From: a virus
Lineage: Duplodnaviria; Heunggongvirae; Uroviricota; Caudoviricetes
IMG/VR virus record: IMGVR_UViG_2675903650_000012
Span: 1-10,632 of that record
DNA: 10,632 bases
Strand: one strand, 5' to 3'
Positions within the stretch are counted from its first letter, which is position 1. Each line of letters opens with the position of its first letter. The notes under the pieces are model-generated. The model was not told the DNA's origin. It searched no databases and saw only the letters and a list, made by a program, of their open reading frames with translations. Below, one piece after another: positions 1 to 10,632 of the stretch. Made by a program: the position numbers and the translations under genes.

Positions 1-164
1 CCGGAAGTTACAGGACAATGGCAGGAGGAAAACTACAGCCCGCAATACGAAAAAGGCCACGCAGTTGCGCAGCCTTATGAATTCTGGTTAAAATCCATTC
101 GATTATAAAAATGTATATCTCATGCTGTTGCCCGAACCCACTCAGGCTTTTTTTTGCCCACAAG

Positions 165-395
165 AAAGCCCCTCCGGAGAGGGGCTAAAGCCGCGTATCT
201 GTATCATCATGCACATGGTGCCGGGTGCCTCCCGGTGAGTTCAGCCCGGTGCCACTAAACCCGCGTCATTCTCGTTTTGATAATCAGAAATTATACCGTC
301 ACCAGTCGCCCCTCCGCTCAGGGGGATTCACCATGCGAAATTTTTTTAACAAATGCCCAGTCTGACAGGCAACTGTCAACTTACTGAATTGTGAG
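165..395. repeat. Structured repeat module, copy A: GC hairpin (168..185), ~120-bp imperfect palindrome closed by catggtg/caccatg (214..336), and conserved downstream blocks
   Basis: Identical or near-identical blocks shared with copy B: aaagcccctccggagaggggct; catggtgccgggtgcctcccggtgagttcag; gcccctccgc(t/a)cagggggattcaccatgc; ttttaacaaa; ca(a/g)c(t/a)gtcaac; ctgaattgtgag. The sequence between blocks has diverged. Confidence 0.6.
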
Positions 396-430
396 CAACA
401 TAGCATTTAACGGGGAACCTGTTTTCTGCA

Positions 431-459
431 GTAAAAAGGCCCACCGGAGCGGATGGGCC
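431..459 (-). terminator. Candidate rho-independent terminator on the minus strand, between the two repeat modules
   Basis: Stem ggccca/tgggcc (438..443 / 454..459) with a 10-nt loop; on the minus strand the hairpin is followed by a run of five T (complement of A 433..437). Confidence 0.45.
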
Positions 460-651
460 TGGAAGGATAGCGGTCATGTGATGCCGGTTTCCCGGTAACT
501 CAGCACCGGTATCTGAGTCAACGTTTTCTCTACTGGGTCATTTCCGATACGCCCTGCCTGCTGACAGGCTTTCATCACATCTGAAAATATAGCACCCTGA
601 CTGATACTGTAGTACCCAAGGTTCCAGAAACTGTGATGTATCCGGCACAGA

Positions 652-878
652 AAAGCCCCTCCGGAGAGGGGCTGGAGAGTGGCGCTATGTGCCATTGCAT
701 GGTGCCGGGTGCCTCCCGGTGAGTTCAGTATCAGCACCTGAACCCGCACAGAAAGGATAAGGGTCGGTGACAAAACACCAGTTGCTGATTGCCCCTCCGC
801 ACAGGGGGATTCACCATGCCAGTTTCTTTTAACAAACTCCCCGCAAACCAGACAACAGTCAACCGCCTGAATTGTGAG
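652..878. repeat. Structured repeat module, copy B (paralog of 165..395): hairpin 655..672, palindromic core 698..819
   Basis: Same ordered conserved blocks as copy A with different intervening sequence; the gttcag...ctgaac hairpin is perfect here and has one mismatch in copy A. Confidence 0.6.
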
Positions 879-1002
879 GTATTTAAAAATTTCAACGGGT
901 AACTGATACCCTGCTAATCGCCTGATGCTTTCTTTTTCAGCAACGGGAAAGCAACAACCACCACACCCACCAGCCGCCCATTTACCACAAATAAAAAATC
1001 CT

Positions 1003-1200
1003 TCACTGCGGAAGGCGTCTGTAACAACCGAACTGATAGTCTGCCAGACCCGCCATAACCAGCTGGGTCAGTATTAACTGGCAGCGTTCGCGTGAAAGGT
1101 AAGTATTCTGCGCAATCTCCCCGACTGTCGCCGGTTCGGTGGCACTTAATTCATTAAACACCACTCTGGCGGTTTCTGTCATATCCTGCTGTTTTAGCAT
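1003..1200 (-). CDS. Small hypothetical protein (65 aa) with an HTH/winged-helix-like segment, downstream of Q
   Basis: Taken from the internal ATG (MLKQQDMTETARVV...) of the 1003..1293 ORF, preceded by a purine-rich gggaaaaagac; the upstream GTG start in the track lacks an RBS and would overlap the terminator region. The segment ATVGEIAQNTYLSRERCQLILTQLVMAGLA resembles a DNA-binding HTH. Confidence 0.45.
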   Translation of the reverse strand: MLKQQDMTETARVVFNELSATEPATVGEIAQNTYLSRERCQLILTQLVMAGLADYQFGCYRRLPQ

Positions 1201-1320
1201 GTCTTTTTCCCTTTTCCGGTTAACGTGACACACCAATAACTCTTGTCGAAAAAGCCAGCAAGCTGAAAGACCGGTATTCACCACCACCAGCACGTTTACT
1301 GTACTGATGCGATTTCAGTC

Positions 1321-1347
1321 ATAAAAAACCCGCCAGGCGGCGGGTTT
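1321..1347 (-). terminator. Strong intrinsic terminator directly downstream of Q (tR'-like position)
   Basis: Perfect 6-bp GC stem cccgcc/ggcggg (1329..1334 / 1339..1344) with a 4-nt loop; on the minus strand it is followed by six T (complement of A 1323..1328). It lies ~60 nt after the Q stop codon. Confidence 0.65.
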
Positions 1348-1404
1348 AAGTTGTGTGGCGTAGTAACCACTCTTAACATACTGACATACTTTTTGCGGAC
1401 CGCG

Positions 1405-1797
1405 CTAATCATTTTTTACTTTTTTGGGCAGCCAGTCGTCCATCTCCAGCCTTACACCCAGCATCGACAGACATCCGTCAATAAATCCTTCAGCAATCTG
1501 CATCTCAATTCGTATTGCCTTTTCGCTCTTCTTTCTTGTTCTGGCAATCTGCCTTTTTGATATGCGCAGCAGATAATGAGCTACCAGCAGCGAATACTCG
1601 TCCGGTTTTTTCTTCTTCAGGCGCGTAAGGCAGTTTTCGATGATAAGGCCGTCATCATCGCTGCAGGCCGGGCGAGGTTTAGCGGTGGATGGTAAAAGGC
1701 CTTTAAATCCAGCAGCTATCGGAGAATAGTCCACCCCGGCGTTACCACTTGCCGCCCATGCCCCCCAGCGTTCGAGAACCATCTGAATATCACGCAT
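1405..1797 (-). CDS. Q: Late-gene antitermination protein Q (QuuD/phage-21-type Q family)
   Basis: Translation from the ATG at 1797 (MRDIQMVLERWGAWAA ... RLEMDDW...), with GGAG 7-10 nt upstream; the track start at 1812 is a TTG. The N-terminus and the ~130-aa length match my memory of E. coli cryptic-prophage Q proteins (QuuD-like). It is the last gene of the nin-region operon. Confidence 0.7.
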   Translation of the reverse strand: MRDIQMVLERWGAWAASGNAGVDYSPIAAGFKGLLPSTAKPRPACSDDDGLIIENCLTRLKKKKPDEYSLLVAHYLLRISKRQIARTRKKSEKAIRIEMQIAEGFIDGCLSMLGVRLEMDDWLPKKVKND

Positions 1798-1814
1798 CAA
1801 CTTTCTCCACAAAA

Positions 1815-2810
1815 TCAGGACAGCACACCAATCGCCAGCGCGCGATCGATAAAACGAAATATCAGCTCCAGCTGGGAGCCATACTTCTCTTCAAATGCCA
1901 CGGTATCCGCATGCAGCTCGTCGTGATGCTTTCTGCACAAAGGCAACACAAAGAGGTCATGCGCTTTTGTAGCCATTCCACCCTGACCGTGACCTATCAG
2001 GTGGTGGGGATCATCAGCAGGCTTTCCACAACATGCGCACGGCTGCGTCTTAACCCAGCGCGTGTACTTTTCATTAACCCAGCGGCGACGTTTTGGGCGT
2101 AACATAAAAGACTCCGGCGACTCCGGATCCACTTTCAGCGCCAGCACCTTTTTCGCTTTATCCCGGATAATACTGGTGGCGGGAACCGAAGGCACAAGGT
2201 CACTTTCCCGGGTGACAGACGGCACAACCGTCTTCGGTAATCTCAGTACCTTACGGGCTGCACTTTCCGGTAAGGCATCCGCCAGGTCATTACGAATCAG
2301 CCACCAGCACAGTTCCGGCATTGTCACAACGTGACTGTCATCAAAACCGAGATCCCGACGCACAACAGACAACACCCAGCGGGCACAGTTATCCGTTGCC
2401 ATTGATTCCAGCCGTTCCGTGAACTGATCGCGCAGCTGGTTATCGCAGTGCCAGCACAGACGGATTGCGCCCGGAGCGTGTCGCATTGTGGTCATGTTCT
2501 CGCTGTGCCATCCGGAATGAGGCCACTGGCAGCCTTTTTCACGAAGTAACCAGCTTTCAAGACATTCCACGCCACCAGCACGACGGATCACTGCCTCATG
2601 GCGGAACACGGACCGAACGGCAGGATCATCCGCCAGCGGTTGTGATGCCGCCGGAACGGCACCACTGGCGAAAGATGAATAACGCTCCGGCTCAGGCTCC
2701 AGCAGGACACGCCCCTGCATAAACAGGGGCATCAGCTCTGAACCTGGCCTGAACAATACGATCCCCATACGCGGGGCAATTTCAGGGGTCAGTAGTGCTC
2801 TCACAGTCAC
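1815..2810 (-). CDS. DUF968-like phage protein (YdfU-like) with a C-terminal Cys/His zinc-finger or HNH-like motif
   Basis: 331-aa ORF; C-terminus CACCGKPADDPHHLIGHGQGGMATKAHDLFVLPLCRKHHDELH (C-x2-C ... HH ... C ... HH ... H). It sits immediately upstream of Q, as ydfU does in Qin-like prophages (from memory). Start uncertain: GTG at 2810 or GTG at 2804 behind a GAGG. Confidence 0.7.
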   Translation of the reverse strand: MTVRALLTPEIAPRMGIVLFRPGSELMPLFMQGRVLLEPEPERYSSFASGAVPAASQPLADDPAVRSVFRHEAVIRRAGGVECLESWLLREKGCQWPHSGWHSENMTTMRHAPGAIRLCWHCDNQLRDQFTERLESMATDNCARWVLSVVRRDLGFDDSHVVTMPELCWWLIRNDLADALPESAARKVLRLPKTVVPSVTRESDLVPSVPATSIIRDKAKKVLALKVDPESPESFMLRPKRRRWVNEKYTRWVKTQPCACCGKPADDPHHLIGHGQGGMATKAHDLFVLPLCRKHHDELHADTVAFEEKYGSQLELIFRFIDRALAIGVLS

Positions 2811-2811
2811 C

Positions 2812-3627
2812 TCAATGAACGGTATCGAGCAGCTTTAACAGCTCAGGAAATCGGGATTCGAAGAAATGCGGCTGCGTCTCGCGCGGATTTGCAGGACTGG
2901 TGATGTTCTTGCCGAACATGCAGCCTTTCGCGGTCAGCGACCAGAATTTTTTGATGTTGTTAATCGCGGTACGGCTGTATCGTTCGCGTTGTTCAACGAT
3001 CCCCAGCTTCGCCATCTGGTGATATGCCTGATTAGCCGTCAGGCGGATACCATACTGCTTCAGCAGTGCACTCAGCGACAGCGTAGGGCGGCTTGAACCA
3101 TCTGGCGCATCAGCAGGTGCATCAATGGCATAGATCGGCATAAGTTCAGGAAGACCAGCTACCTTTGATAATTTCTGGTATGCACCAAGTTTCGAGGAGT
3201 TTGACAGATTTAGAGTCTTTGCTGCTGATTCAAGCAGAATGACCCCGGATTTAATTTTGTCGGATGTGGTTTCTTCTGGTGATGAATTATGAAGCGCATC
3301 AAAAGTACGTATCACTTTTAAGCTGAATGCCGGGCTGATCCACATTGCATATGCATAGACCAGCTCTTTACAGACATACGTCCCACCATTGCGCCCCTGA
3401 ATGGTGATGACAGGAATACTACGGGAATCTCCCGTAGTTTCTTCTTCCAATAATTCCACAAGAGCCTTCGTTTCAGGACGACGCATAAACTCGTGAACTT
3501 CCAGCGAACGGGAGGAGCGATTCTCACCAGCGGCAAGAAGAGCAGCTTTCTGAAGGTCGTTAAGACAGTAGTTAGATTCGAAGTACTGGCGCACAGAAAC
3601 GCCATCAATTACAAGCAACTGATTCAT
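2812..3627 (-). CDS. KilA-N domain protein
   Basis: Translation from the ATG at 3627 (MNQLLVIDG...), with GGAG 7-10 nt upstream. KilA-N hallmark GGTYVCKELVYAYAMWISPAFSLKVIRTFD. The C-terminal half (from about residue 150) is a separate, unassigned region. Confidence 0.75.
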   Translation of the reverse strand: MNQLLVIDGVSVRQYFESNYCLNDLQKAALLAAGENRSSRSLEVHEFMRRPETKALVELLEEETTGDSRSIPVITIQGRNGGTYVCKELVYAYAMWISPAFSLKVIRTFDALHNSSPEETTSDKIKSGVILLESAAKTLNLSNSSKLGAYQKLSKVAGLPELMPIYAIDAPADAPDGSSRPTLSLSALLKQYGIRLTANQAYHQMAKLGIVEQRERYSRTAINNIKKFWSLTAKGCMFGKNITSPANPRETQPHFFESRFPELLKLLDTVH

Positions 3628-3724
3628 TGGTTTCTCCACAAATTTTTATCCACGAGCGGGACTGCACTCCCTTTTCGTTGATGCAGGATGAACTTACTGC
3701 GATTTTTAATAGTTATCAAGGATA

Positions 3725-3744
3725 CACTGTTCATAAATACAGTA
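3725..3744. promoter_or_regulatory. LexA-box-like palindrome (SOS-box candidate) upstream of the KilA-N/DUF968/Q genes
   Basis: CACTGTTCATAAATACAGTA: CTGT (3727..3730), an 8-nt AT-rich spacer, ACAG (3739..3742); 16 of 20 positions match the consensus TACTGTATATATATACAGTA as I recall it. Flanked by GATAC (3721..3725) and GTATC (3742..3746). Lies in the 160-bp gap between rusA and the KilA-N gene. Confidence 0.4.
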
Positions 3745-3789
3745 TCTTTAACGAGGTAATACCCAAATTTAGGGTGTTGCTCAATTCCG

Positions 3790-4185
3790 TTACCGAGTTG
3801 CTAATTTGCAACTCGCTTTTTCGTACTTACTGATAGTGATCTCGACCTTCCCTTCCGGGATAACCGGTCCCCACTCCACCAGCATTCTTTTCACCTGGCT
3901 GTCGTCTTCCCACACACCCGCGTGGGTCAGGGCGTCAAACAGCGCCTTGTTATAGTTGTCCAGATCGCGGATCCGGTTATCCGGAGGAAACAACACGATC
4001 TCCACTGAAGCAGGTGCCGACGTTGGTTTCGGCAGACGACGTAACTGCTCAACTATTGCTGCACACGCCGCGCTCTGGAATTTTCGCCCCGCCGCGCTTA
4101 TCAGGCTCTTACCAGCAAACGCCCCTTTGTTGGGGTGTCGCCAGTACGTGTTCACGCTGGGCGGAAAAGGCAGTATTAGCTTCAT
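3790..4185 (-). CDS. rusA: Crossover junction endodeoxyribonuclease RusA (Holliday junction resolvase)
   Basis: 131 aa; N-terminus MKLILPFPPSVNTYWRH resembles RusA (...LPWPPSNNRYYRH) and the catalytic-region motif RIRDLDNYNKALFDAL is present. The ATG overlaps the upstream stop (ATGA). Confidence 0.9.
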   Translation of the reverse strand: MKLILPFPPSVNTYWRHPNKGAFAGKSLISAAGRKFQSAACAAIVEQLRRLPKPTSAPASVEIVLFPPDNRIRDLDNYNKALFDALTHAGVWEDDSQVKRMLVEWGPVIPEGKVEITISKYEKASCKLATR

Positions 4186-4835
4186 GCCACCATCTCCCTG
4201 ACCAGTTTTTCCGCCTGCTGGCGAACCTGCGCCAGAAATGCCTCACCACATGCCTCAAGTTCATCGCGCCCGATGTAGCTGATTGCCGGTCCCTTCCAGG
4301 TCTTGTCGAAAACAGCAATAGCACCAGCGAAGAAAGCACCTGTTGGCACCTGCTTTTCGTCTTTCGGGATAAACCAGGCAGGCAGTTCAAAACCAATACG
4401 CCCGCGAATAAAAGCAATATGATCTGCATCTTCCGGCCACCACACTTCGCTGGTGGCAGCTTTGATCAGGAAAACATAGCGCCCGCCTTTATCACGCATG
4501 GCAGTGGCATGCTTCATGATGTAACGCATGCCGGTGATGTATTGCCCCTCATGCTGACTGGCGCGGCTGTACGGGGGATTGCCAAAGGCAGCACCTTTAA
4601 GCTCCGCAAGACGTTCTGACCAGTCATGCGCCAGCGCGTTGTCTTCCGCCGTGTAATACGCGGCACATTTGGCGTTATCACCGTCAGTGAACAGATCCAG
4701 AACAAACGGACCAAACAAGGTGTTAATTCCCCAGAAAATGTTATCCGGCGTGCGCCACTGATCTCCCACTTCCTTCAGTTCATGGGCTGGTTTATTCCGC
4801 AGTTCCACCAGCGCCTGGCAATATTTATTACTCAT
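4182..4835 (-). CDS. Phage DNA N6-adenine methyltransferase (Dam-type)
   Basis: 217 aa; NPPY catalytic motif (AAFGNPPYSRA); typical nin-region methylase of lambdoid phages. Start ATG overlaps the stop of the upstream 30-aa ORF (TAATG). Confidence 0.85.
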   Translation of the reverse strand: MSNKYCQALVELRNKPAHELKEVGDQWRTPDNIFWGINTLFGPFVLDLFTDGDNAKCAAYYTAEDNALAHDWSERLAELKGAAFGNPPYSRASQHEGQYITGMRYIMKHATAMRDKGGRYVFLIKAATSEVWWPEDADHIAFIRGRIGFELPAWFIPKDEKQVPTGAFFAGAIAVFDKTWKGPAISYIGRDELEACGEAFLAQVRQQAEKLVREMVA

Positions 4836-4927
4836 TAAGCCCCCACGTAAAAAGCATCCGCAATGTCTCCGGAAGTACAGCCAGGATGGGCTTCAATGAA
4901 TTTCTGAACTTCATTCAAAAGACTCAT
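4835..4927 (-). CDS. Small ORF (30 aa, MSLLNEVQKFIEAHPGCTSGDIADAFYVGA), hypothetical
   Basis: Not in the ORF track (too short). Strong SD AGGGGGTG 5 nt upstream of the ATG; its stop overlaps the methylase ATG (TAATG) and its start lies 2 nt after the O-like stop. Confidence 0.35.
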   Translation of the reverse strand: MSLLNEVQKFIEAHPGCTSGDIADAFYVGA

Positions 4928-4929
4928 GA

Positions 4930-5913
4930 TCACCCCCTGAATCCTGCCGGAATCTGGCTGTAGTCCACGTTGTCGTAACTGGCTTTGAAGTACGGGTCCT
5001 CGCGTCTGGCTGCAGATACCGCAGGAACTTCCCAGGATTCTTCGAAATGACGATCCGGACCAAAGAACGTCGACGCCTGCTTCACGAACTGGGTACCGGT
5101 ATTTCCAGAGACACGCACCCAGGCGGCATAGCGTTTCACACCGTCGAGCATGGTTTCGGGTGTCACACCTTCCCTGATTCGGGCTTTCCAGGCTTTAAAA
5201 GCGGCGGATTTTGAATTACCACCAGCACGTTTGGGATATTCCTGCCAGGCCTGTTCAAATTCCGGTGAATATTCCTGTCGGGCAGAACGCGCTGGCGCAG
5301 ACGCGTCAGCGGATGCATCAATAGTGTTTTTAGTCTCCGTTGTAATCTCTGTAGTAATCTCTGTATTTGTATCAACATTCAGCGTATCCCCTGTTCCGTT
5401 ATGACGTCGGGGGGTGTTCCGTTTTAACGTAATAGCTGTATCGCTGATTGCATTATTGCTGTTACTTTCTGGCGAAACAGAAGAAGGTGTGGTGATGGCC
5501 GCAATTGCCTGTGGGTTGATCCCGACAAACAAAATATTGCTGCATTTCACCCCATCGAGCATTTCCACCGTGCGTAAATCCAGAGTAATAAACCCTGCAT
5601 CGCGCAGACGCTTCAGCGCATCTGCGGTTTCCCTTTTCCCGAAACCAAACTGCTCAGCAAACGCCTGGTAGCTTCTTTGCAGTTTGTCGCCCTGAAAACG
5701 CTTGCGATATCCCAGCAACGCTCCGGTGTGCTCATCCCTGACCTCTGTCGGGCGGTACCAGTAAACGATCTCTGAAAGCAGAGCGATAGCCGTCGCATCC
5801 GGACGCCCACTGGGTAGTCGAATATATTTCCACCAGTTCGCAGGTGTAACATTGCCGGAAATATTAATTTGACCAATAGCCATAACTTCCGGTGTGGGGG
5901 CGTAACGGCTCAT
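4930..5913 (-). CDS. Phage replication initiator / replisome organizer (lambda O-like), with iterons inside the gene
   Basis: 327 aa; N-terminal region (...IVYWYRPTEVRDEHTGALLGYRKRFQGDKLQRSYQAFAEQFGFGKRETADALKRLRDAGFI...) resembles DnaD/replisome-organizer N-domains. A central linker (TEITTEITTETKNT, ASADASA) is encoded by direct DNA repeats, as ori-lambda lies within O. Confidence 0.65.
   Translation of the reverse strand: MSRYAPTPEVMAIGQINISGNVTPANWWKYIRLPSGRPDATAIALLSEIVYWYRPTEVRDEHTGALLGYRKRFQGDKLQRSYQAFAEQFGFGKRETADALKRLRDAGFITLDLRTVEMLDGVKCSNILFVGINPQAIAAITTPSSVSPESNSNNAISDTAITLKRNTPRRHNGTGDTLNVDTNTEITTEITTETKNTIDASADASAPARSARQEYSPEFEQAWQEYPKRAGGNSKSAAFKAWKARIREGVTPETMLDGVKRYAAWVRVSGNTGTQFVKQASTFFGPDRHFEESWEVPAVSAARREDPYFKASYDNVDYSQIPAGFRG
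5333..5380. repeat. Candidate origin iterons inside the O-like gene
   Basis: tagtctccgttg / taatctctgtag / taatctctgtat / ttgtatcaacat: tandem 12-bp units, with two exact gtaatctctgta copies at 5342..5353 and 5354..5365. Confidence 0.5.
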
Positions 5914-6209
5914 ACAACCTCCTTCCGCGGCATGAGAATTGTGTAGCCACGCGCAGGTTGTAGTCTGGCTTTTGCATCAATAGTAAGCGTTGCAATTTTT
6001 CGGATATGAAGATAACCAGCTCTTTCCAGTGCCAGGGTTTCCCTGAATATCGCTTGCTTAGAACAACAGCAGAAATCAGCAAGCACCTGATGATCAATAA
6101 CTCTCTCGCCTTCACCGTCTGAAGAACCCGACATCAAAACACGCAACATAATCAGGCGCTGAATCGGGTTATCGAAAGCACATCCGCACACAAACTGAAA
6201 ACAGTTCAC
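5910..6209 (-). CDS. Hypothetical protein (99 aa), translationally coupled to the O-like gene
   Basis: Stop overlaps the O-like ATG (ATGA at 5910..5913) and start overlaps the upstream stop (6206..6209). Cys-rich (CGC, CCC); a possible HTH at QAIFRETLALERAGYL. Confidence 0.5.
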   Translation of the reverse strand: MNCFQFVCGCAFDNPIQRLIMLRVLMSGSSDGEGERVIDHQVLADFCCCSKQAIFRETLALERAGYLHIRKIATLTIDAKARLQPARGYTILMPRKEVV

Positions 6210-6430
6210 GCCACACCTCCCAGACGCTTAAACATTTTTCCGGAGCAAAAGGCTATAAGCGGCATACTGATGCGGTAATTACGGCCCAGCGGTTCACAAA
6301 TCACCTTCTGACATTCACGGTCAACCAGGCTGACACGTAGAACATGCCCTGCAGGCGTGGTGTACCACTGACCAGGACGAGGACAACGGAAAGTCTGATT
6401 GGTAAACCGTTTGAAAATATTCCGGATCAT
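6206..6430 (-). CDS. Hypothetical protein (74 aa)
   Basis: ATGA overlaps with both neighbours; same strand and operon context. No family recognised. Confidence 0.45.
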   Translation of the reverse strand: MIRNIFKRFTNQTFRCPRPGQWYTTPAGHVLRVSLVDRECQKVICEPLGRNYRISMPLIAFCSGKMFKRLGGVA

Positions 6431-7587
6431 TTGCGCCCCCTTACCTCTGAAGGGTTCAGCGACAAATTTATGAGACTGGCCAGTAGCGCCGCGTCGTTGA
6501 TGCGGTCATACAGACTTACAGCCAGCGGGGATTCGGCTTTTGCCAACATGGGATAAAGCTGCTGCAGCCAGACCTTGTGGATTACCGACAGGTGGGAGTA
6601 AAGCACGCTGGCGTTATCTGCGGCATCGCTCAGCGTGGATGGCTTTGAAAGCAGTTTTTCCATCTGGTTAAAGGCATTGATGTATGCCTCTTTGAACCGG
6701 GCAGCACGTTTACCCGTGAAACCCATAGCAAGAAACGCAAAACCGTCTCGTGTGATTTGATAGCAAGGGAGCTTGCGTGTACCACCGTTCGGTTGATTTA
6801 CCGAAATCGATGTCTCCGCAAAATTGCGGGCACAAAACTCTGGGGAACAATCCAGAGTGCGGATCTTTTTCAGCACATCGTCGTGACGCTTGGAGAAGGA
6901 GTTGGCAACAGCCAAAGAAGTGGTAACGGCCTGGCCGTTGTCAATGGTGATTTCAGGTTGAGTGAGGGCTGGGATCGTAGCCATGATGGCAGCCTCCGTT
7001 GACAGTGAAAAACTTCCACCACCGGAAACGCCAATTTCACTGGTGGTGAACTGGACGGGGTTGGCGTAACCGGCGTCAACGGAGACCGGCGCACCTTTCG
7101 GTGCCCCCGCCCAGCCCACCATAATCTGGATGTGAGCAAATGCGGACGATAAAAAAGACGCTGGCGCGTCATACATCGCCGTTGACAATTTCAGGACGCC
7201 AATCCCGGCACCCGCTTTATAAGGTGCCTGAACAGTGTAACGTCCCGGAATGGCAGAATCAATGTGCTGGTGGTCCTTCACACTCAACAAAATCACGCCT
7301 GAATTTCCACAAAGGACTAAAGCACTCATGCTGGTAGTCTTTGCGAAGATAGATAACGCGCTGTGTTTCTGGCTCCCAACGAATAACATGAACATAAAGT
7401 CCTCTTCCGTCACGAAACCAGCGGTTAAGTTCCTGCACAACTCGCCCCCCACAGTCAGGTAAAGTTCTCTGTGGTTACTTACAGCCAGGTGATTTGGTAA
7501 TCTGCATTCATGCCGTAACAACAGGTGTTCAGCGACGCTGACCACCAGCTGTTGCGACAAACGGTTATTTGCCGTTAAACTATTCAT
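6427..7587 (-). CDS. Rha-family phage regulatory protein with a ~200-aa N-terminal extension of unknown function
   Basis: Residues ~205-320 (MATIPALTQPEITIDNGQAVTTSLAVANSFSKRHDDVLKKI...YQITRDGFAFLAMGFTGKRAARFKEAYINAFNQMEKLL) match the Rha N-terminal domain. The ORF continues in frame ~200 aa upstream (Gly-rich linker VSGGGSFSLS) and its ATG overlaps the stop of the CII-like gene (ATGA at 7584..7587). Confidence 0.65.
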   Translation of the reverse strand: MNSLTANNRLSQQLVVSVAEHLLLRHECRLPNHLAVSNHRELYLTVGGELCRNLTAGFVTEEDFMFMLFVGSQKHSALSIFAKTTSMSALVLCGNSGVILLSVKDHQHIDSAIPGRYTVQAPYKAGAGIGVLKLSTAMYDAPASFLSSAFAHIQIMVGWAGAPKGAPVSVDAGYANPVQFTTSEIGVSGGGSFSLSTEAAIMATIPALTQPEITIDNGQAVTTSLAVANSFSKRHDDVLKKIRTLDCSPEFCARNFAETSISVNQPNGGTRKLPCYQITRDGFAFLAMGFTGKRAARFKEAYINAFNQMEKLLSKPSTLSDAADNASVLYSHLSVIHKVWLQQLYPMLAKAESPLAVSLYDRINDAALLASLINLSLNPSEVRGRK

Positions 7588-8153
7588 GCGTTAGTTTCTC
7601 CACAACCAGAAGCAATCGACGCCACGACGCCCGGAGCTGCACACTCGCGGGCGTTACTATTTTCTGGAGCGCAGAAGATTTTGTAGACCAGTGCTGCATG
7701 CTCCTGGAGCTTCGAAATTGAGAGGTACAGCTCGTCGTTAATTGCTGTCTTCTCATGCGGTTCCACTACACCGTCTTCGATTGCTGAACGAATCTGTCTG
7801 GAATAACTGCCGATCTGTTCAATGACTTCCAGCAGACGCTGGTTAATATCGGCGTTGTCCACATCCTCGACGTCAGGAAGAGACACAAAGACGCCATTTG
7901 CAGACTGCGCCACAGCGTCAGCAATGAAGTGAGTTCCACCAGCACGTTGTAAAATCATTGCCCATCCCAGCGGGAAAATCTGATCGCCATCGGCACGAAG
8001 GCGATTGAATAAAGCGTTCTCTGTTACATCCAGCCACTCAGCAGCTTCAGCGTAACCCCCCGGCAACGCCGCGATAGTTTTTCTGACAGCTTTCACGTAC
8101 CACTCAGGCTGTTTTTCTACTTTCCAGTGATGCTTACCCACGGTTAGCCTCAT
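7584..8153 (-). CDS. Putative CII-like / YdaT-like regulator (189 aa)
   Basis: Second gene after the Cro-like gene, the usual CII/YdaT position. Putative HTH GGYAEAAEWLDVTENALFNRLRADGDQ. No SD is visible upstream of the ATG (cagaacg ATG). The family assignment is positional and weak. Confidence 0.5.
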   Translation of the reverse strand: MRLTVGKHHWKVEKQPEWYVKAVRKTIAALPGGYAEAAEWLDVTENALFNRLRADGDQIFPLGWAMILQRAGGTHFIADAVAQSANGVFVSLPDVEDVDNADINQRLLEVIEQIGSYSRQIRSAIEDGVVEPHEKTAINDELYLSISKLQEHAALVYKIFCAPENSNARECAAPGVVASIASGCGETNA

Positions 8154-8184
8154 CGTTCTGTGGTTAAAAATTGAAGGTGTTCTG

Positions 8185-8385
8185 TTAATCTTTCGGATAG
8201 ATATCCGGTCTTAAGTCAGATTTCGTAATTGCACCTGACGTGCATTGCTCAAGTTTTTTAGCCAGCACAAAACTGGCTTTTTTATAACCATTGAAAACCA
8301 GCCGTAAGTAGCCTGGTGTTGAGCCAACTTTTCCGGCCAACTCGCCCTGCTGTTCTTTGGTTAAAGAGTCCCAATACGCTTTCAT
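8185..8385 (-). CDS. cro: Cro-like HTH regulator (YdaS-type, 66 aa)
   Basis: Translation from the internal ATG at 8385 (MKAYWDSLTKEQQGELAGKVGSTPGYLRLVFNGYKK...LRPDIYPKD), with GGAGG ~10 nt upstream. The C-terminus (...TKSDLRPDI) resembles YdaS (...CEELRPDI). The longer 167-aa ORF would begin upstream of the predicted pR start site and overlap the operators. Confidence 0.7.
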   Translation of the reverse strand: MKAYWDSLTKEQQGELAGKVGSTPGYLRLVFNGYKKASFVLAKKLEQCTSGAITKSDLRPDIYPKD

Positions 8386-8390
8386 ACAAT

Positions 8391-8470
8391 ATGTACCTCC
8401 GATATACATATTACATGATTGAGATGAACCTTCAAGATACTTGTACCCTATCGGTACAAAGGTTTTAATT
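8391..8470. promoter_or_regulatory. Divergent switch region (OR-like): candidate pR (minus), candidate pRM (plus, leaderless cI), and two 19-bp operators
   Basis: Operators ATGTACC-tccga-TATACAT (8391..8409) and the perfect palindrome TTGTACC-ctatc-GGTACAA (8441..8459). Candidate pR on the minus strand: -35 TTGAAG (8430..8435), 16-bp spacer, -10 TAATAT (8408..8413). Candidate pRM on the plus strand: -35 TTGTAC (8441..8446), 17-bp spacer, -10 TTTAAT (8464..8469), placing the start site at or next to the cI ATG (8476). Confidence 0.5.
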
Positions 8471-8475
8471 TCGTT

Positions 8476-9150
8476 ATGAAAACAGTCCATGACATCCGGC
8501 GGTCTAACGCCAGAAAACTGAGAGATGGTGTTGGCGGGAATTCTTCCTTTGCCACCATGATTGATCGCGAGCCAACCCAGACCAGCAGGTTTATGGGAGA
8601 TGGTGCTACTAAAAATATCGGTGACAGCATGGCACGGCACATCGAAAAATGTTTCGACCTGCCTGTCGGATGGCTTGATCAAGAACACCAGACAACAAAC
8701 ATCACAAAAAAACCTGATGTTTCAATTACTAACAAACAAATAACGTTAGTCCCTGTCATATCATGGGTACAGGCCGGAGCATGGAAAGAAGTTGGCTATT
8801 CTGAGGTTGATTTGAGCACAGCAGAAACTTATCCCTGCCCTGTACCCTGTGGCGAAATGACTTATATCTTGCGGGTGATTGGTGATTCAATGATTGATGA
8901 GTACCGCCCGGGAGACATGATTTTTGTAGATCCTGAAGTCCCTGCCTGCCACGGTGACGACGTTATTGCATTGATGCACGATACAGGCGAAACCACCTTT
9001 AAGCGGTTGATAGAAGATGGAACACAGCGTTACCTCAAAGCATTAAACCCAAACTGGCCTGAACCTTACATTAAGATCAACGGTAATTGCTCTATAATTG
9101 GCACAGTAATTTTCTCAGGAAAACCAAGAAGATACAAAATAAAGGCCTAA
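8476..9150 (+). CDS. cI: CI/C2-type prophage repressor (HTH N-domain plus S24 LexA-like autopeptidase C-domain)
   Basis: 224 aa; C-domain LVPVISWVQAGAWKEV...VIGDSMIDEYRPGDMIFVDPEV...TFKRL...LKALNPNWPEPYIKINGNCSIIG closely resembles P22 C2 / lambda CI. Catalytic Ser (GDSM) and Lys (TFKRL) are present, as is an Ala-Gly candidate cleavage site (VQAGAW). Confidence 0.9.
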   Translation: MKTVHDIRRSNARKLRDGVGGNSSFATMIDREPTQTSRFMGDGATKNIGDSMARHIEKCFDLPVGWLDQEHQTTNITKKPDVSITNKQITLVPVISWVQAGAWKEVGYSEVDLSTAETYPCPVPCGEMTYILRVIGDSMIDEYRPGDMIFVDPEVPACHGDDVIALMHDTGETTFKRLIEDGTQRYLKALNPNWPEPYIKINGNCSIIGTVIFSGKPRRYKIKA

Positions 9151-9161
9151 TCAATATTTAT

Positions 9162-9185
9162 AACCTGCTTCGGCAGGTTTTTTTA
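9162..9185 (+). terminator. Intrinsic terminator of the cI transcript
   Basis: Stem aacctgc/gcaggtt (9162..9168 / 9173..9179) with loop ttcg, followed by a T run through 9184; begins 12 nt after the cI stop. Confidence 0.7.
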
Positions 9186-9188
9186 TAC

Positions 9189-9221
9189 TTGACAATGTAC
9201 CCTTGAGATACATAATGTATC
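9189..9221 (+). promoter_or_regulatory. pL-like promoter with overlapping operators
   Basis: -35 TTGACA (9189..9194), 16-bp spacer, -10 CATAAT (9211..9216). Operator ATGTACC-cttga-GATACAT (9195..9213) has the same architecture as the two OR sites; a perfect 15-bp palindrome GATACATaATGTATC (9207..9221) overlaps the -10. Confidence 0.6.
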
Positions 9222-9633
9222 TAAAAGAAACATGTCACAGGCAAGATTAAACAAAATTTGGTTGTAACACGGCGTATGGCACATGCGTCGTTAGCGGTCT
9301 GGGGACGTTAAAGGGGACAATCCACTCCTTGCTCGGGCAAACAAACCAGGTAGCCGGAATGTGCAAGTCAATGAGGATGCTGATAAGACGCCTAACCAGC
9401 GTGGCGATTCGGTTTGACGCCTGGGAAGAGACCAGGGTGCAACGATGAGGGCATTTATGGAACCGCGACAAAGTATGGTGCCGTAACTGGCTAAGTGCTC
9501 TCAGCGTTGTGGTAATCCGCGAAATGGCGCGGCGGTAAGTATGGCGGGGTTATTCCTTCCCCGTTGAGGACACCGGGTTGTCAGGTTGACCATACGCTTA
9601 AGTGACAAGCCCACCACAACAGCCACTGCTTTG

Positions 9634-9679
9634 GCGGTACCAGTTTGTACACTTGCTTCCGGCTGGTACCGCTCTTTTT
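9634..9679 (+). terminator. Strong intrinsic terminator inside the long leader downstream of pL
   Basis: Perfect 10-bp stem gcggtaccag/ctggtaccgc (9634..9643 / 9663..9672) with a 19-nt loop, followed by tcttttt (9673..9679). Confidence 0.6.
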
Positions 9680-9816
9680 ACAAAACAGAGAAGAGCATCA
9701 CCGGACGACGGGCTCATAACCCAATCCACCCGGGCGGCTGCCACCGCAGGTGTTCTTCTCTGTTTTGTGGAGAAACCAACCGACCTTGCAGGGTCGATAT
9801 GATGAGGAGCAGCAAA

Positions 9817-10179
9817 ATGGCTAGCGAACGCAGTACTGATGTGCAGGCATTTATCGGGGAGCTGGACGGCGGCGTATTTGAAACCAAAATCGGCGCTGTT
9901 CTCAGTGAAGTCGCTTCAGGTGTGATGAACACGAAAACCAAAGGGAAGGTCTCGCTCAACCTGGAAATCGAACCGTTTGATGAGAACCGTGTGAAAATAA
10001 AACACAAACTCTCATATGTTCGTCCGACTAACCGCGGGAAAATTTCCGAAGAAGACACCACCGAAACGCCGATGTATGTCAATCGCGGTGGTCGCCTGAC
10101 TATTCTGCAGGAAGACCAGGGACAATTACTGACTCTTGCCGGTGAACCTGACGGAAAACTCCGCGCAGCAGGTCATTAA
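9817..10179 (+). CDS. Hypothetical protein (120 aa), first gene of the pL-side operon
   Basis: Translation from the ATG at 9817 (MASERSTDVQAFIGELDGG...), with strong SD GAGGAG (9804..9809) 7 nt upstream. The upstream in-frame extension to 9586 runs through the terminator hairpin and begins at a TTG. Acidic, with no Arg-rich motif, so not N-like. Confidence 0.6.
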   Translation: MASERSTDVQAFIGELDGGVFETKIGAVLSEVASGVMNTKTKGKVSLNLEIEPFDENRVKIKHKLSYVRPTNRGKISEEDTTETPMYVNRGGRLTILQEDQGQLLTLAGEPDGKLRAAGH

Positions 10180-10244
10180 TATCGTTCTTAATTAACTGAT
10201 TATTTATCTCATCACTGAATATCTTTATATAGTGAGGACTTATT

Positions 10245-10628
10245 ATGTCTCAGAACTTAGACGCAACCGCAATTAATCAAATCCATGCCCTTATTTCTGC
10301 GCAGGGTGTTAATGAAATTATCAGTAAGATTGGTGCCGATGCTGTGGCATTGCCTGAGAATTTCCGCATTCATGATCTGGAAAAATTTAATTTAAATCGC
10401 TTCCGTTTCCGTGGTGCGCTTTCCACTGCCAGCATCGATGACTTTACCCGTTATTCTAAAGATCTTGCAGATGAAGGCACCCGCTGCTTTATCGATGCTG
10501 ATAATATGCGTGCCGTCAGTGTGCTTAACCTGGGTACTATTGATGAACCAGGTCACGCAGATAACACCGCCACTCTCAAACTGAAAAAGACAGCACCGTT
10601 CTCTGTGTCAACGACGGATGAAAAGTGA
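10245..10628 (+). CDS. Hypothetical protein (127 aa)
   Basis: Complete ORF from ATG to TGA, with SD GAGGA ~7 nt upstream (agtgaggacttatt ATG). No family recognised. Confidence 0.6.
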
Positions 10629-10632
10629 TCCA

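Follow-up and report, generated by a model that had tools for sequence, protein, structure and literature searches.

Does a Rha-family regulator that is preceded by some 200 in-frame codons carry an additional protein domain, or do those codons serve another function? This question is raised by a 10,632-nt stretch of Caudoviricetes DNA (positions 1 to 10,632 of IMG/VR record IMGVR_UViG_2675903650_000012; hereafter the window, meaning the whole stretch), which holds on its minus strand a 386-codon open reading frame (ORF) ending in a Rha domain. A preliminary description of this DNA had proposed that the upstream part may be a novel sensor or effector domain, joined to Rha by a Gly-rich linker and translated as a full fusion. 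We compared the locus with its relatives at the nucleotide level, by ORF, hidden Markov model (HMM), Rfam, covariation and codon-position analyses and by the ratio of nonsynonymous to synonymous change (pN/pS). Reading 5' to 3' on the minus strand, the layout is ymfL, a YmfM-like segment, DUF4222, a putative promoter, IsrK, C4, a leader with the sites a2 and b2, and Rha (Table 1). We consider it likely that this region is an antisense-RNA immunity module of the type known from P1/P7 c4, P4 CI and Gifsy-1 IsrK, placed in a lambdoid early right operon and controlling Rha, a putative antirepressor.

RNA genes under the Ash match

In both loci that we tested, the window and the satellite P4, the 'Ash domain' is the conceptual translation of an RNA locus: the match of the Pfam model Phage_ASH (PF10554) falls on RNA genes and not on constrained coding sequence. 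In the window this match covers amino acids 117-212 of the long ORF (6952..7239; 74.3 bits against a cut-off of 26), a stretch that is composed of isrK, C4 and the leader and that fails a protein-coding test, with allele differences spread flatly over the codon positions. The Rfam models of isrK and C4 match end to end (Table 1), the minimum-free-energy fold of C4 returns the same three stems at -52.2 kcal/mol, and the c4-a1b1 model reaches 21.6 bits in the window, under its gathering score of 46.7. The isrK-C4 pair recurs with the same spacing in 17 of the 17 related loci searched and is also present in P4 and Gifsy-1; an Rfam search did not find it in e14. About 110 nt around the DUF4222 stop codon (roughly 7305..7193) are near-invariant among lambdoid alleles that otherwise differ widely.

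In P4, the Ash model matches the obsolete 'cI gene product (AA 1-137)' ORF at amino acids 22-85 (8330..8521, minus strand), and the P4 CI RNA (Rfam C4; 8507..8420) lies within the matched stretch. The statement that P4 'Ash' is epsilon (PMC8628076) does not hold, as the true epsilon belongs to a different family, PF25738, and the Ash model matches the obsolete cI ORF. In the Rha proteins of Shiga toxin (Stx) phages, Ash has been called a domain of unknown function (PMC8951638). One Stx phage record annotates both non-coding RNAs, and orf37 of SfV is already labelled 'immunity region'.

The two RNAs and their leader evolve as a set of paired strands. We aligned the interval between the isrK start and the gene ATG in 16 alleles and scored the pairs expected from the Rfam-derived structure and from the intermolecular pairings; 93.5% of the cells were paired and 33 pairs had changed on both sides, which none of 500 shuffles reached, and sliding the partners by 1-3 columns left only 29-50% paired. 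The three stems of C4 are 100% paired, with double changes in 13 of 27 pairs. The sites in IsrK pair with those in C4 (a1-a' 99.1%, b1-b' 87.3%), and the sites in C4 pair with those in the leader (a'-a2 97.5%, b'-b2 85.7%), each with double changes. The predicted b'-b2 duplex has an energy of -23.7 kcal/mol, as compared to -10.9 +/- 2.3 kcal/mol for shuffled targets.

At least nine a specificities and more than ten b specificities occur among these alleles, and the three copies shift together in each allele. Some alleles share one site only: the window and the Stx1 allele have the same b and a different a. The many co-varying specificities suggest heteroimmune classes among otherwise similar prophages, and the sequences hint that these classes may be combinatorial.

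A further strand of the leader takes part in this pairing. The 3' strand of the C4 closing stem (TCACCACC, 7042..7049) can pair alternatively with the leader strand GGTGGTGG; this helix is 94.5% paired, with four positions doubly changed, which suggests a precursor or switch structure comparable to the alternative structures of Gifsy-1. The supposed Gly-rich linker, GVSGGGSF, is encoded by GGCGTTTCCGGTGGTGGAAGT, which comprises the a2 target and the covarying helix strand.

Table 1. Features of the locus, in the order of transcription, with the evidence for each
Feature	Position	Strand	Evidence and remarks
YmfL / phage CII (CP76)-like gene	7584..8153	minus	Pfam PF06892, E 4.9e-14; named ymfL in relatives
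Long through-ORF, 386 codons	6427..7587	minus	ATG start; in frame with Rha; resembles P4 eta
Codons 1-49, probable diverged homologue of YmfM N-part	7441..7587	minus	Alignment with type-1 YmfM N-parts
DUF4222 gene, 59 aa	7259..7438	minus	PF13973, phrog_1343; GTG start, -1 frame of the long ORF
Putative promoter PisrK	7234..7262	minus	-35 TTGATT 7262..7257, 17-nt spacer, -10 TACACT 7239..7234, start near 7227
isrK / P4 seqA-type RNA	7151..7227	minus	Rfam RF01394, 62.2 bits (gathering score 50), E 1e-11, model 1-77/77
isrK a1 site	7202..7196	minus	In hairpin loop
isrK b1 site	7185..7176	minus
isrK intrinsic terminator	7170..7157, then T6	minus	Hairpin; terminator prediction
C4 / P4 CI-type antisense RNA	7039..7126	minus	Rfam RF01695, 81.4 bits (gathering score 45), E 3e-15, model 1-87/87
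C4 b' loop	7085..7076	minus
C4 a' junction	7067..7061	minus
Leader with C4 targets	6993..7034	minus	Pairing and duplex energy
a2 target	7034..7028	minus
Alternative-helix strand GGTGGTGG	7023..7016	minus
b2 target	7002..6993	minus	Includes Shine-Dalgarno GGAGG (6997..6993)
Rha-family regulator / putative antirepressor, 185 aa	6427..6984	minus	Starts at internal Met, codon 202

The coding signal sets in at the internal methionine of 'MATIPALTQPEITIDNGQ' (MATIPALTQPE). Its ATG (6984..6982) follows the GGAGG of b2 at a spacing of 8 nt, and differences between alleles change character there: in the 243 nt upstream they are distributed 186/180/224 over the three codon positions, i.e. without periodicity, and in Rha downstream they are distributed 140/100/307 (p 2e-29), which is strongly periodic. 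The Pfam Rha model (PF09669; E 1e-27, 97 bits against a cut-off of 29.9) matches amino acids 222-311 of the long ORF, which are amino acids 21-110 of the 185-residue product, and TIGR02681 matches at 88.3 bits against a cut-off of 45.95. A 'MAT.P' N-terminus stands at the equivalent ATG of the F039 Rha coding sequence, the icd of a P1-like element (73 aa) and the kil-sized ORF of P4 (65 aa). Where a homologous module stands alone (for example F039 Rha, P1-like icd and Gifsy-1 anrP), the gene starts at this methionine and has in-frame stops upstream; P4 kil also starts there, but inside the open eta frame, with no stops upstream.

The gene under control varies. In the SfV, KP63 and R1 alleles the RNA module lies on DNA that is 92-96% identical, and the controlled gene is a 77-aa ORF (2104..2337 in L005 and L006; the 3' part of orf37 in SfV). 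Since this ORF has in common with Rha only the residues 'MATVPAL' despite the near-identity of the module, recombination seems to exchange the cargo genes at a point just within the first ~8 codons. Other modules control ORF6N proteins (AnrP; H0107 of VT2-Sakai), Bro-N proteins (Tyrion, TL-2011b) or a small Icd/Kil-type ORF. The possibility that the window Rha is homologous to Gifsy-1 AnrP was considered and dropped: blastp finds no similarity, and AnrP is an ORF6N protein.

DUF4222 and a YmfM-like segment in the first 110 codons

Codons 50-110 of the long ORF are an out-of-frame reading of a conserved DUF4222 gene. The product matches PF13973 (E 1.1e-13, 51 bits against a cut-off of 27) and, over its full length, phrog_1343 (E 4e-36). 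We compared the two frames among the window, ST64B, an Stx1 phage and e14. Between lambdoid alleles the DUF4222 frame has a pN/pS of 0.13-0.17, against e14 one of 0.32-0.44, and substitutions concentrate at its third codon positions; in the long frame, over codons 50-110, pN/pS is 1.3-3.4, and values above 1 hold for the other frames in general. Amino-acid identity follows the same division, at 0.80-0.90 in the DUF4222 frame versus 0.45-0.69 in the long frame between lambdoid alleles, and at 0.61-0.63 versus 0.28-0.33 in the e14 comparisons. In 22 further enterobacterial loci pN/pS is 0.34 for DUF4222 versus 1.50 for the long frame. A survey of DUF4222 in other genera yielded 40 loci, 38 of them distinct, and all 38 have ATG, GTG or TTG at the homologous start. 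The PGAP pipeline annotates DUF4222 in L002, L005, L006 and L008.

We also considered a -1 frameshift at a G-run near 7445 that would join the YmfM N-part to DUF4222, and rejected it because the G-run is absent from e14 and most loci and because DUF4222 has its own start in 38 of 38.

The first 49 codons align with type-1 YmfM N-parts (MNSLT.NNRL.Q...R.E.R..N...NH), with several conserved residues and six codons lost. Between the window and ST64B, pN/pS over these codons is 0.33, with no clear periodicity, so that the signal is weak within the window's own group. In the 22 enterobacterial loci the YmfM N-part (first 56 codons) has a pN/pS of 0.32, as compared to 1.1-1.4 in the other two frames. 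Of the N-terminal region, only amino acids 1-49 look like a conserved coding segment, and codons 50-201 are free of protein constraint in the long frame. No HMM library that we searched covers the YmfM N-part, and amino acids 1-116 and ORFs of the YmfM type match nothing in NCBIfam or Pfam.

In 36 of the 38 DUF4222 loci the long frame forms a 'YmfM' ORF of 108-114 codons, without the RNA module; these 36 ORFs start by an ATGA overlap with ymfL, are open through DUF4222, and stop 6-9 nt before the in-frame start of a replication gene. The ymfL-ymfM region of e14 in E. coli K-12 resembles the window in having the same ymfL, the ATGA overlap, the opening 'MNSLT' and the nested DUF4222 (61% amino-acid identity). 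Unlike the window, e14 and its intact relatives are without isrK, C4 and Rha, and their long frame ends ~8 codons short of the DUF4222 stop, immediately ahead of the replication gene. The e14-like relatives are too similar to e14 for a strong frame test.

The gene assigned to the division inhibitor YmfM holds a nested gene that is better conserved. In e14, ymfM (L004, 5823..6161), annotated as the K-12 division inhibitor, holds DUF4222 nested in its -1 frame, and this is the constrained frame of the overlap; PGAP annotates DUF4222, not YmfM, in K-12-like genomes. YmfM is described as an SOS-inducible division inhibitor, and the study of ymfM cloned the whole ORF; a search of ymfM papers for frame-specific mutants found none. 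The division inhibition ascribed to e14 'YmfM' may belong to the nested DUF4222 protein or may need both products.

The through-frame and its possible roles

The 386-codon ORF and its coupling to the preceding gene are as first described: its ATG (7587..7585) overlaps the TGA of ymfL as ATGA, within 'aacgcATGAatag', and 201 stop-free codons precede ATG 6984. The frame is open in every close allele that we examined, namely eight operon-embedded alleles and one from Citrobacter braakii (locus L026) with a through-ORF of 383 aa, and is thus more than an accident of a single sequence. In all eight embedded modules the in-frame ORF begins at or beside the stop of the upstream gene, and P4 does likewise; this coupling, by ATGA or by adjacency, is seen in four different upstream contexts. 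By contrast, in seven of seven stand-alone modules (F039, VT2-Sakai, P1-like RCS47, Tyrion, Apl-pPE4, TL-2011b and Gifsy-1) the frame is closed by stops that lie 4-71 codons before the ATG of the gene. The split of open and closed frames by context supports, at the level of sequence, an overriding role for the long frame. An ORF across C4 is not a general requirement of such modules, as the P1-like, VT2-Sakai, Tyrion, TL-2011b, Apl-pPE4 and Gifsy-1 modules have nearby in-frame stops.

P4 offers a close parallel. Its nested genes lie downstream of the promoters PLL and PLE. There the ATG of eta (ORF199), at 8767, abuts the stop of orf88, and the ORF runs in frame through PLE, seqA, CI and seqC into kil, whose 65 codons begin at ATG 8365 with GGAGG upstream. 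PMC10111431, citing Forti et al. 1999, states that translation of eta occurs solely on transcripts of the upstream late promoter, depends on coupling to the gene before it, and prevents immunity-dependent termination. P4 and the window have in common a long-ORF ATG at the stop of the upstream gene, an internal promoter (putative in the window), an isrK/seqA RNA and a C4/CI RNA that both match their Rfam families full length, a target covering GGAGG, a 'MAT' ATG, a long ORF in frame with the short gene, and an Ash match on the CI region. They differ in that the nested short gene is a 185-aa Rha-family protein in the window and the 65-aa Kil in P4, in that the window is a lambdoid prophage early operon and P4 a satellite, and in that the window's long ORF also overprints DUF4222 and begins with a YmfM-like segment.

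In P1 and P7, the immI region follows an a1/b1 - c4(a'/b') - a2/b2 logic, in which b2 covers the ribosome-binding site of the gene that comes first. The window follows this logic too, and the first gene shares the 'MATVP..PE' N-terminus, with a Bro-network antirepressor gene downstream. In the P1-like element RCS47 a 73-codon, icd-sized ORF starts at the equivalent ATG, with stops six codons upstream. Unlike the window, which controls Rha itself, P1-type elements have a separate 73-aa icd before ant and no in-frame ORF across c4.

In Gifsy-1 the isrK promoter, which was shown experimentally, drives IsrK; some transcripts read through the terminator into orf45-anrP, and the C4-like RNA STnc1160 is processed from this read-through transcript (PMC4825925). 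Expression of AnrP, an antirepressor-like protein, leads to induction of the prophage (PMC4825925). The orf45 frame starts at an AUG in the C4 5' end, and its UGA overlaps the AUG of anrP. Gifsy-1 resembles the window in the isrK/C4 spacing, the position of the promoter (putative in the window), the terminator followed by read-through, the AUG at the C4 5' end and the Bro-network antirepressor gene downstream. It differs from the window in that AnrP is an ORF6N protein unrelated to the window Rha, in that orf45 is a 45-codon ORF of its own, closed by an AUGA overlap, where the window's equivalent frame is fused to Rha, and in that the module stands alone after antQ, without a through-ORF. The kind of element is already known, as a c4/CI/IsrK antisense-RNA switch before 'Bro-network' genes; particular to the window's lineage is the through-ORF that is fused to Rha, overprints DUF4222 and begins with a YmfM-like segment.

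By analogy with these systems, the internal promoter would in a lysogen make IsrK and a read-through transcript, from which C4 would be processed. C4 would then pair with a2/b2 and block ribosome binding at the Rha start, keeping the 185-aa Rha off, and a1/b1 of IsrK would act as decoy or target sites for C4. The promoter itself is predicted from positional homology: its -35 and -10 elements keep their position upstream of isrK in 16 alleles and match the positions of Gifsy-1 PisrK and P4 PLE. The putative -35 hexamer TTGATT contains the stop codon of DUF4222 (TGA, 7261..7259). When transcription starts at the upstream early promoter, ribosomes that arrive from ymfL by coupling probably translate through the terminator and the C4 region, reading one frame across DUF4222 (which lies in the -1 frame), the internal promoter and the two RNA genes, and this through-translation would override RNA immunity and allow expression of the Rha sequence and the genes downstream in lytic growth. 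The through-ORF would be a P4 eta-type 'immunity override' of lambdoid phages, which unmasks Rha in lytic growth and yields a long YmfM-N-Rha isoform beside the short, C4-controlled one; we put this forward tentatively, as a possibility that has less than an even chance. For codons 50-201 we infer that what matters is the open frame and not the amino acids encoded.

Several observations weigh against the module reading or its override. A consensus promoter scan of 6900..7700 called no promoter, PisrK matching 8 of 12 consensus positions, and promoter activity, C4 processing and Rha repression are all taken over from homologous systems. Because the short IsrK of Gifsy-1 activates translation and does not repress it, the upstream RNA of the window may act with a different sign. 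The long ORF contains the IsrK terminator, which could end most upstream transcripts before Rha. Related alleles share ancestry, and the open frame may be partly inherited rather than selected. Finally, the window Rha is not similar to Gifsy-1 AnrP, and its antirepressor role is putative.

Three other readings assign the frame differently. A genuine fusion, in which a folded N-terminal sensor or effector of ~200 aa is joined by a Gly-rich linker to Rha in a functional 386-aa protein, would account for the open frame and its coupling to the upstream stop, for the Pfam Ash match, for PHROG families of 307-324 aa that cover Ash plus Rha, and for the long protein annotated by PGAP and in several phage records. 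It is nonetheless very hard to credit. The Ash stretch is two RNA genes that evolve by RNA covariation instead of codon rules, pN/pS exceeds 1 over amino acids 50-110, where it is the overlapping DUF4222 frame that is constrained, the 'linker' consists of the a2 site and a covarying helix strand, and the close homologues of Rha in stand-alone modules begin at the internal methionine with stops upstream. The codon-position and covariation tests largely refute this reading and, with it, the proposed sensor or effector domain. What the preliminary description named as its refutation, homologues that begin at the internal methionine and codon statistics of a non-coding upstream frame, is largely what we observe. 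As to whether the full fusion is translated, the open frame and its coupling to the upstream stop stand, and translation is quite plausible by analogy with P4 eta. An improbable variant places the start of the main product at the AUG at the C4 5' end (7122..7120; codon 156), as in orf45 but with the frame fused to Rha, giving a 231-aa protein. This AUG is invariant in 16 alleles, has the same position as the first AUG of Gifsy-1 orf45 (~106 nt from the predicted IsrK start, as compared to A107), and is where phrog_4908 proteins begin, and translation of orf45 is required for anrP expression in Gifsy-1 (PMC4825925). Yet no Shine-Dalgarno sequence is evident upstream of it, and it is part of a conserved C4 stem, which accounts for its conservation; moreover, the upstream ORF is variable in length and ends well before the gene in the P1-like, VT2-Sakai and Tyrion modules, and the strong GGAGG and the b2 target are located at ATG 6984.

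A more serious competitor to the override, though one we regard as rather unlikely, is that the long ORF is never translated and stays open only because the alleles share ancestry and the RNA sequence is rich in GC and poor in stops; the genes proper would then be ymfL, possibly a short YmfM-like ORF, DUF4222, both RNAs and the 185-aa Rha. The lack of amino-acid constraint over codons 50-201 and the intrinsic terminator within the ORF agree with this, and the frame +1 of the Rha frame is also stop-poor in some alleles, with no stop at all in Stx1. When DUF4222 was recoded synonymously, the long frame stayed open in 10-50% of trials (mostly 15-37%), so openness over the DUF4222 part alone is not rare. 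What an untranslated frame explains poorly is the perfect split between eight of eight embedded modules open and seven of seven stand-alone modules closed, the coupling, by ATGA or by adjacency, across four upstream contexts, and the 36 of 38 DUF4222 loci without the RNA module in which the frame stays open until just before the in-frame start of the next gene. P4 eta also provides a precedent, since according to the account of Forti et al. 1999 in PMC10111431, nonsense mutations in the long ORF cause termination.

Annotation of related loci and neighbouring RNAs

DNA near-identical to this locus is widespread. Hundreds of prophages of E. coli have it, with 529 genomes covering at least 80% of the query, and near-identical DNA is also present in phages SfV, ST64B, cdtI and mEp460 and in Stx phages. 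PGAP treats it inconsistently: some genomes (L001, L003, L007) are given the full 386-aa 'Rha family' protein, and others, on 92-99% identical DNA, are given DUF4222 and an 'ash family protein' or a shorter Rha. The genomes with the split annotation also have the long frame open. Many phages, both Stx-converting and other lambdoid ones, carry annotated 'Rha/Ash' fusions, which have been discussed as two-domain proteins of unknown function (PMC8951638). The Ash part here marks an RNA-based second immunity system that would gate a putative antirepressor, and such an RNA switch is relevant to prophage induction and hence to the release of Shiga toxin. The prophage also encodes a LexA-like repressor (8476..9150). 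The main value of these comparisons is a correction of the 'Rha/Ash fusion' annotation, together with the question of whether YmfM or DUF4222 is the division inhibitor of e14.

Further small-RNA matches lie at the window's left end, which is downstream of the Q-like gene region. These are two full-length matches to the small RNA STnc100 (166 and 141 bits; gathering score 47), a weak third copy, and an AsxR-like match at 56.5, just under the gathering score of 63; the STnc100 and AsxR-like matches lie at 156..365, 643..848 and 431..604 on the minus strand and at 100..152 on the plus strand.

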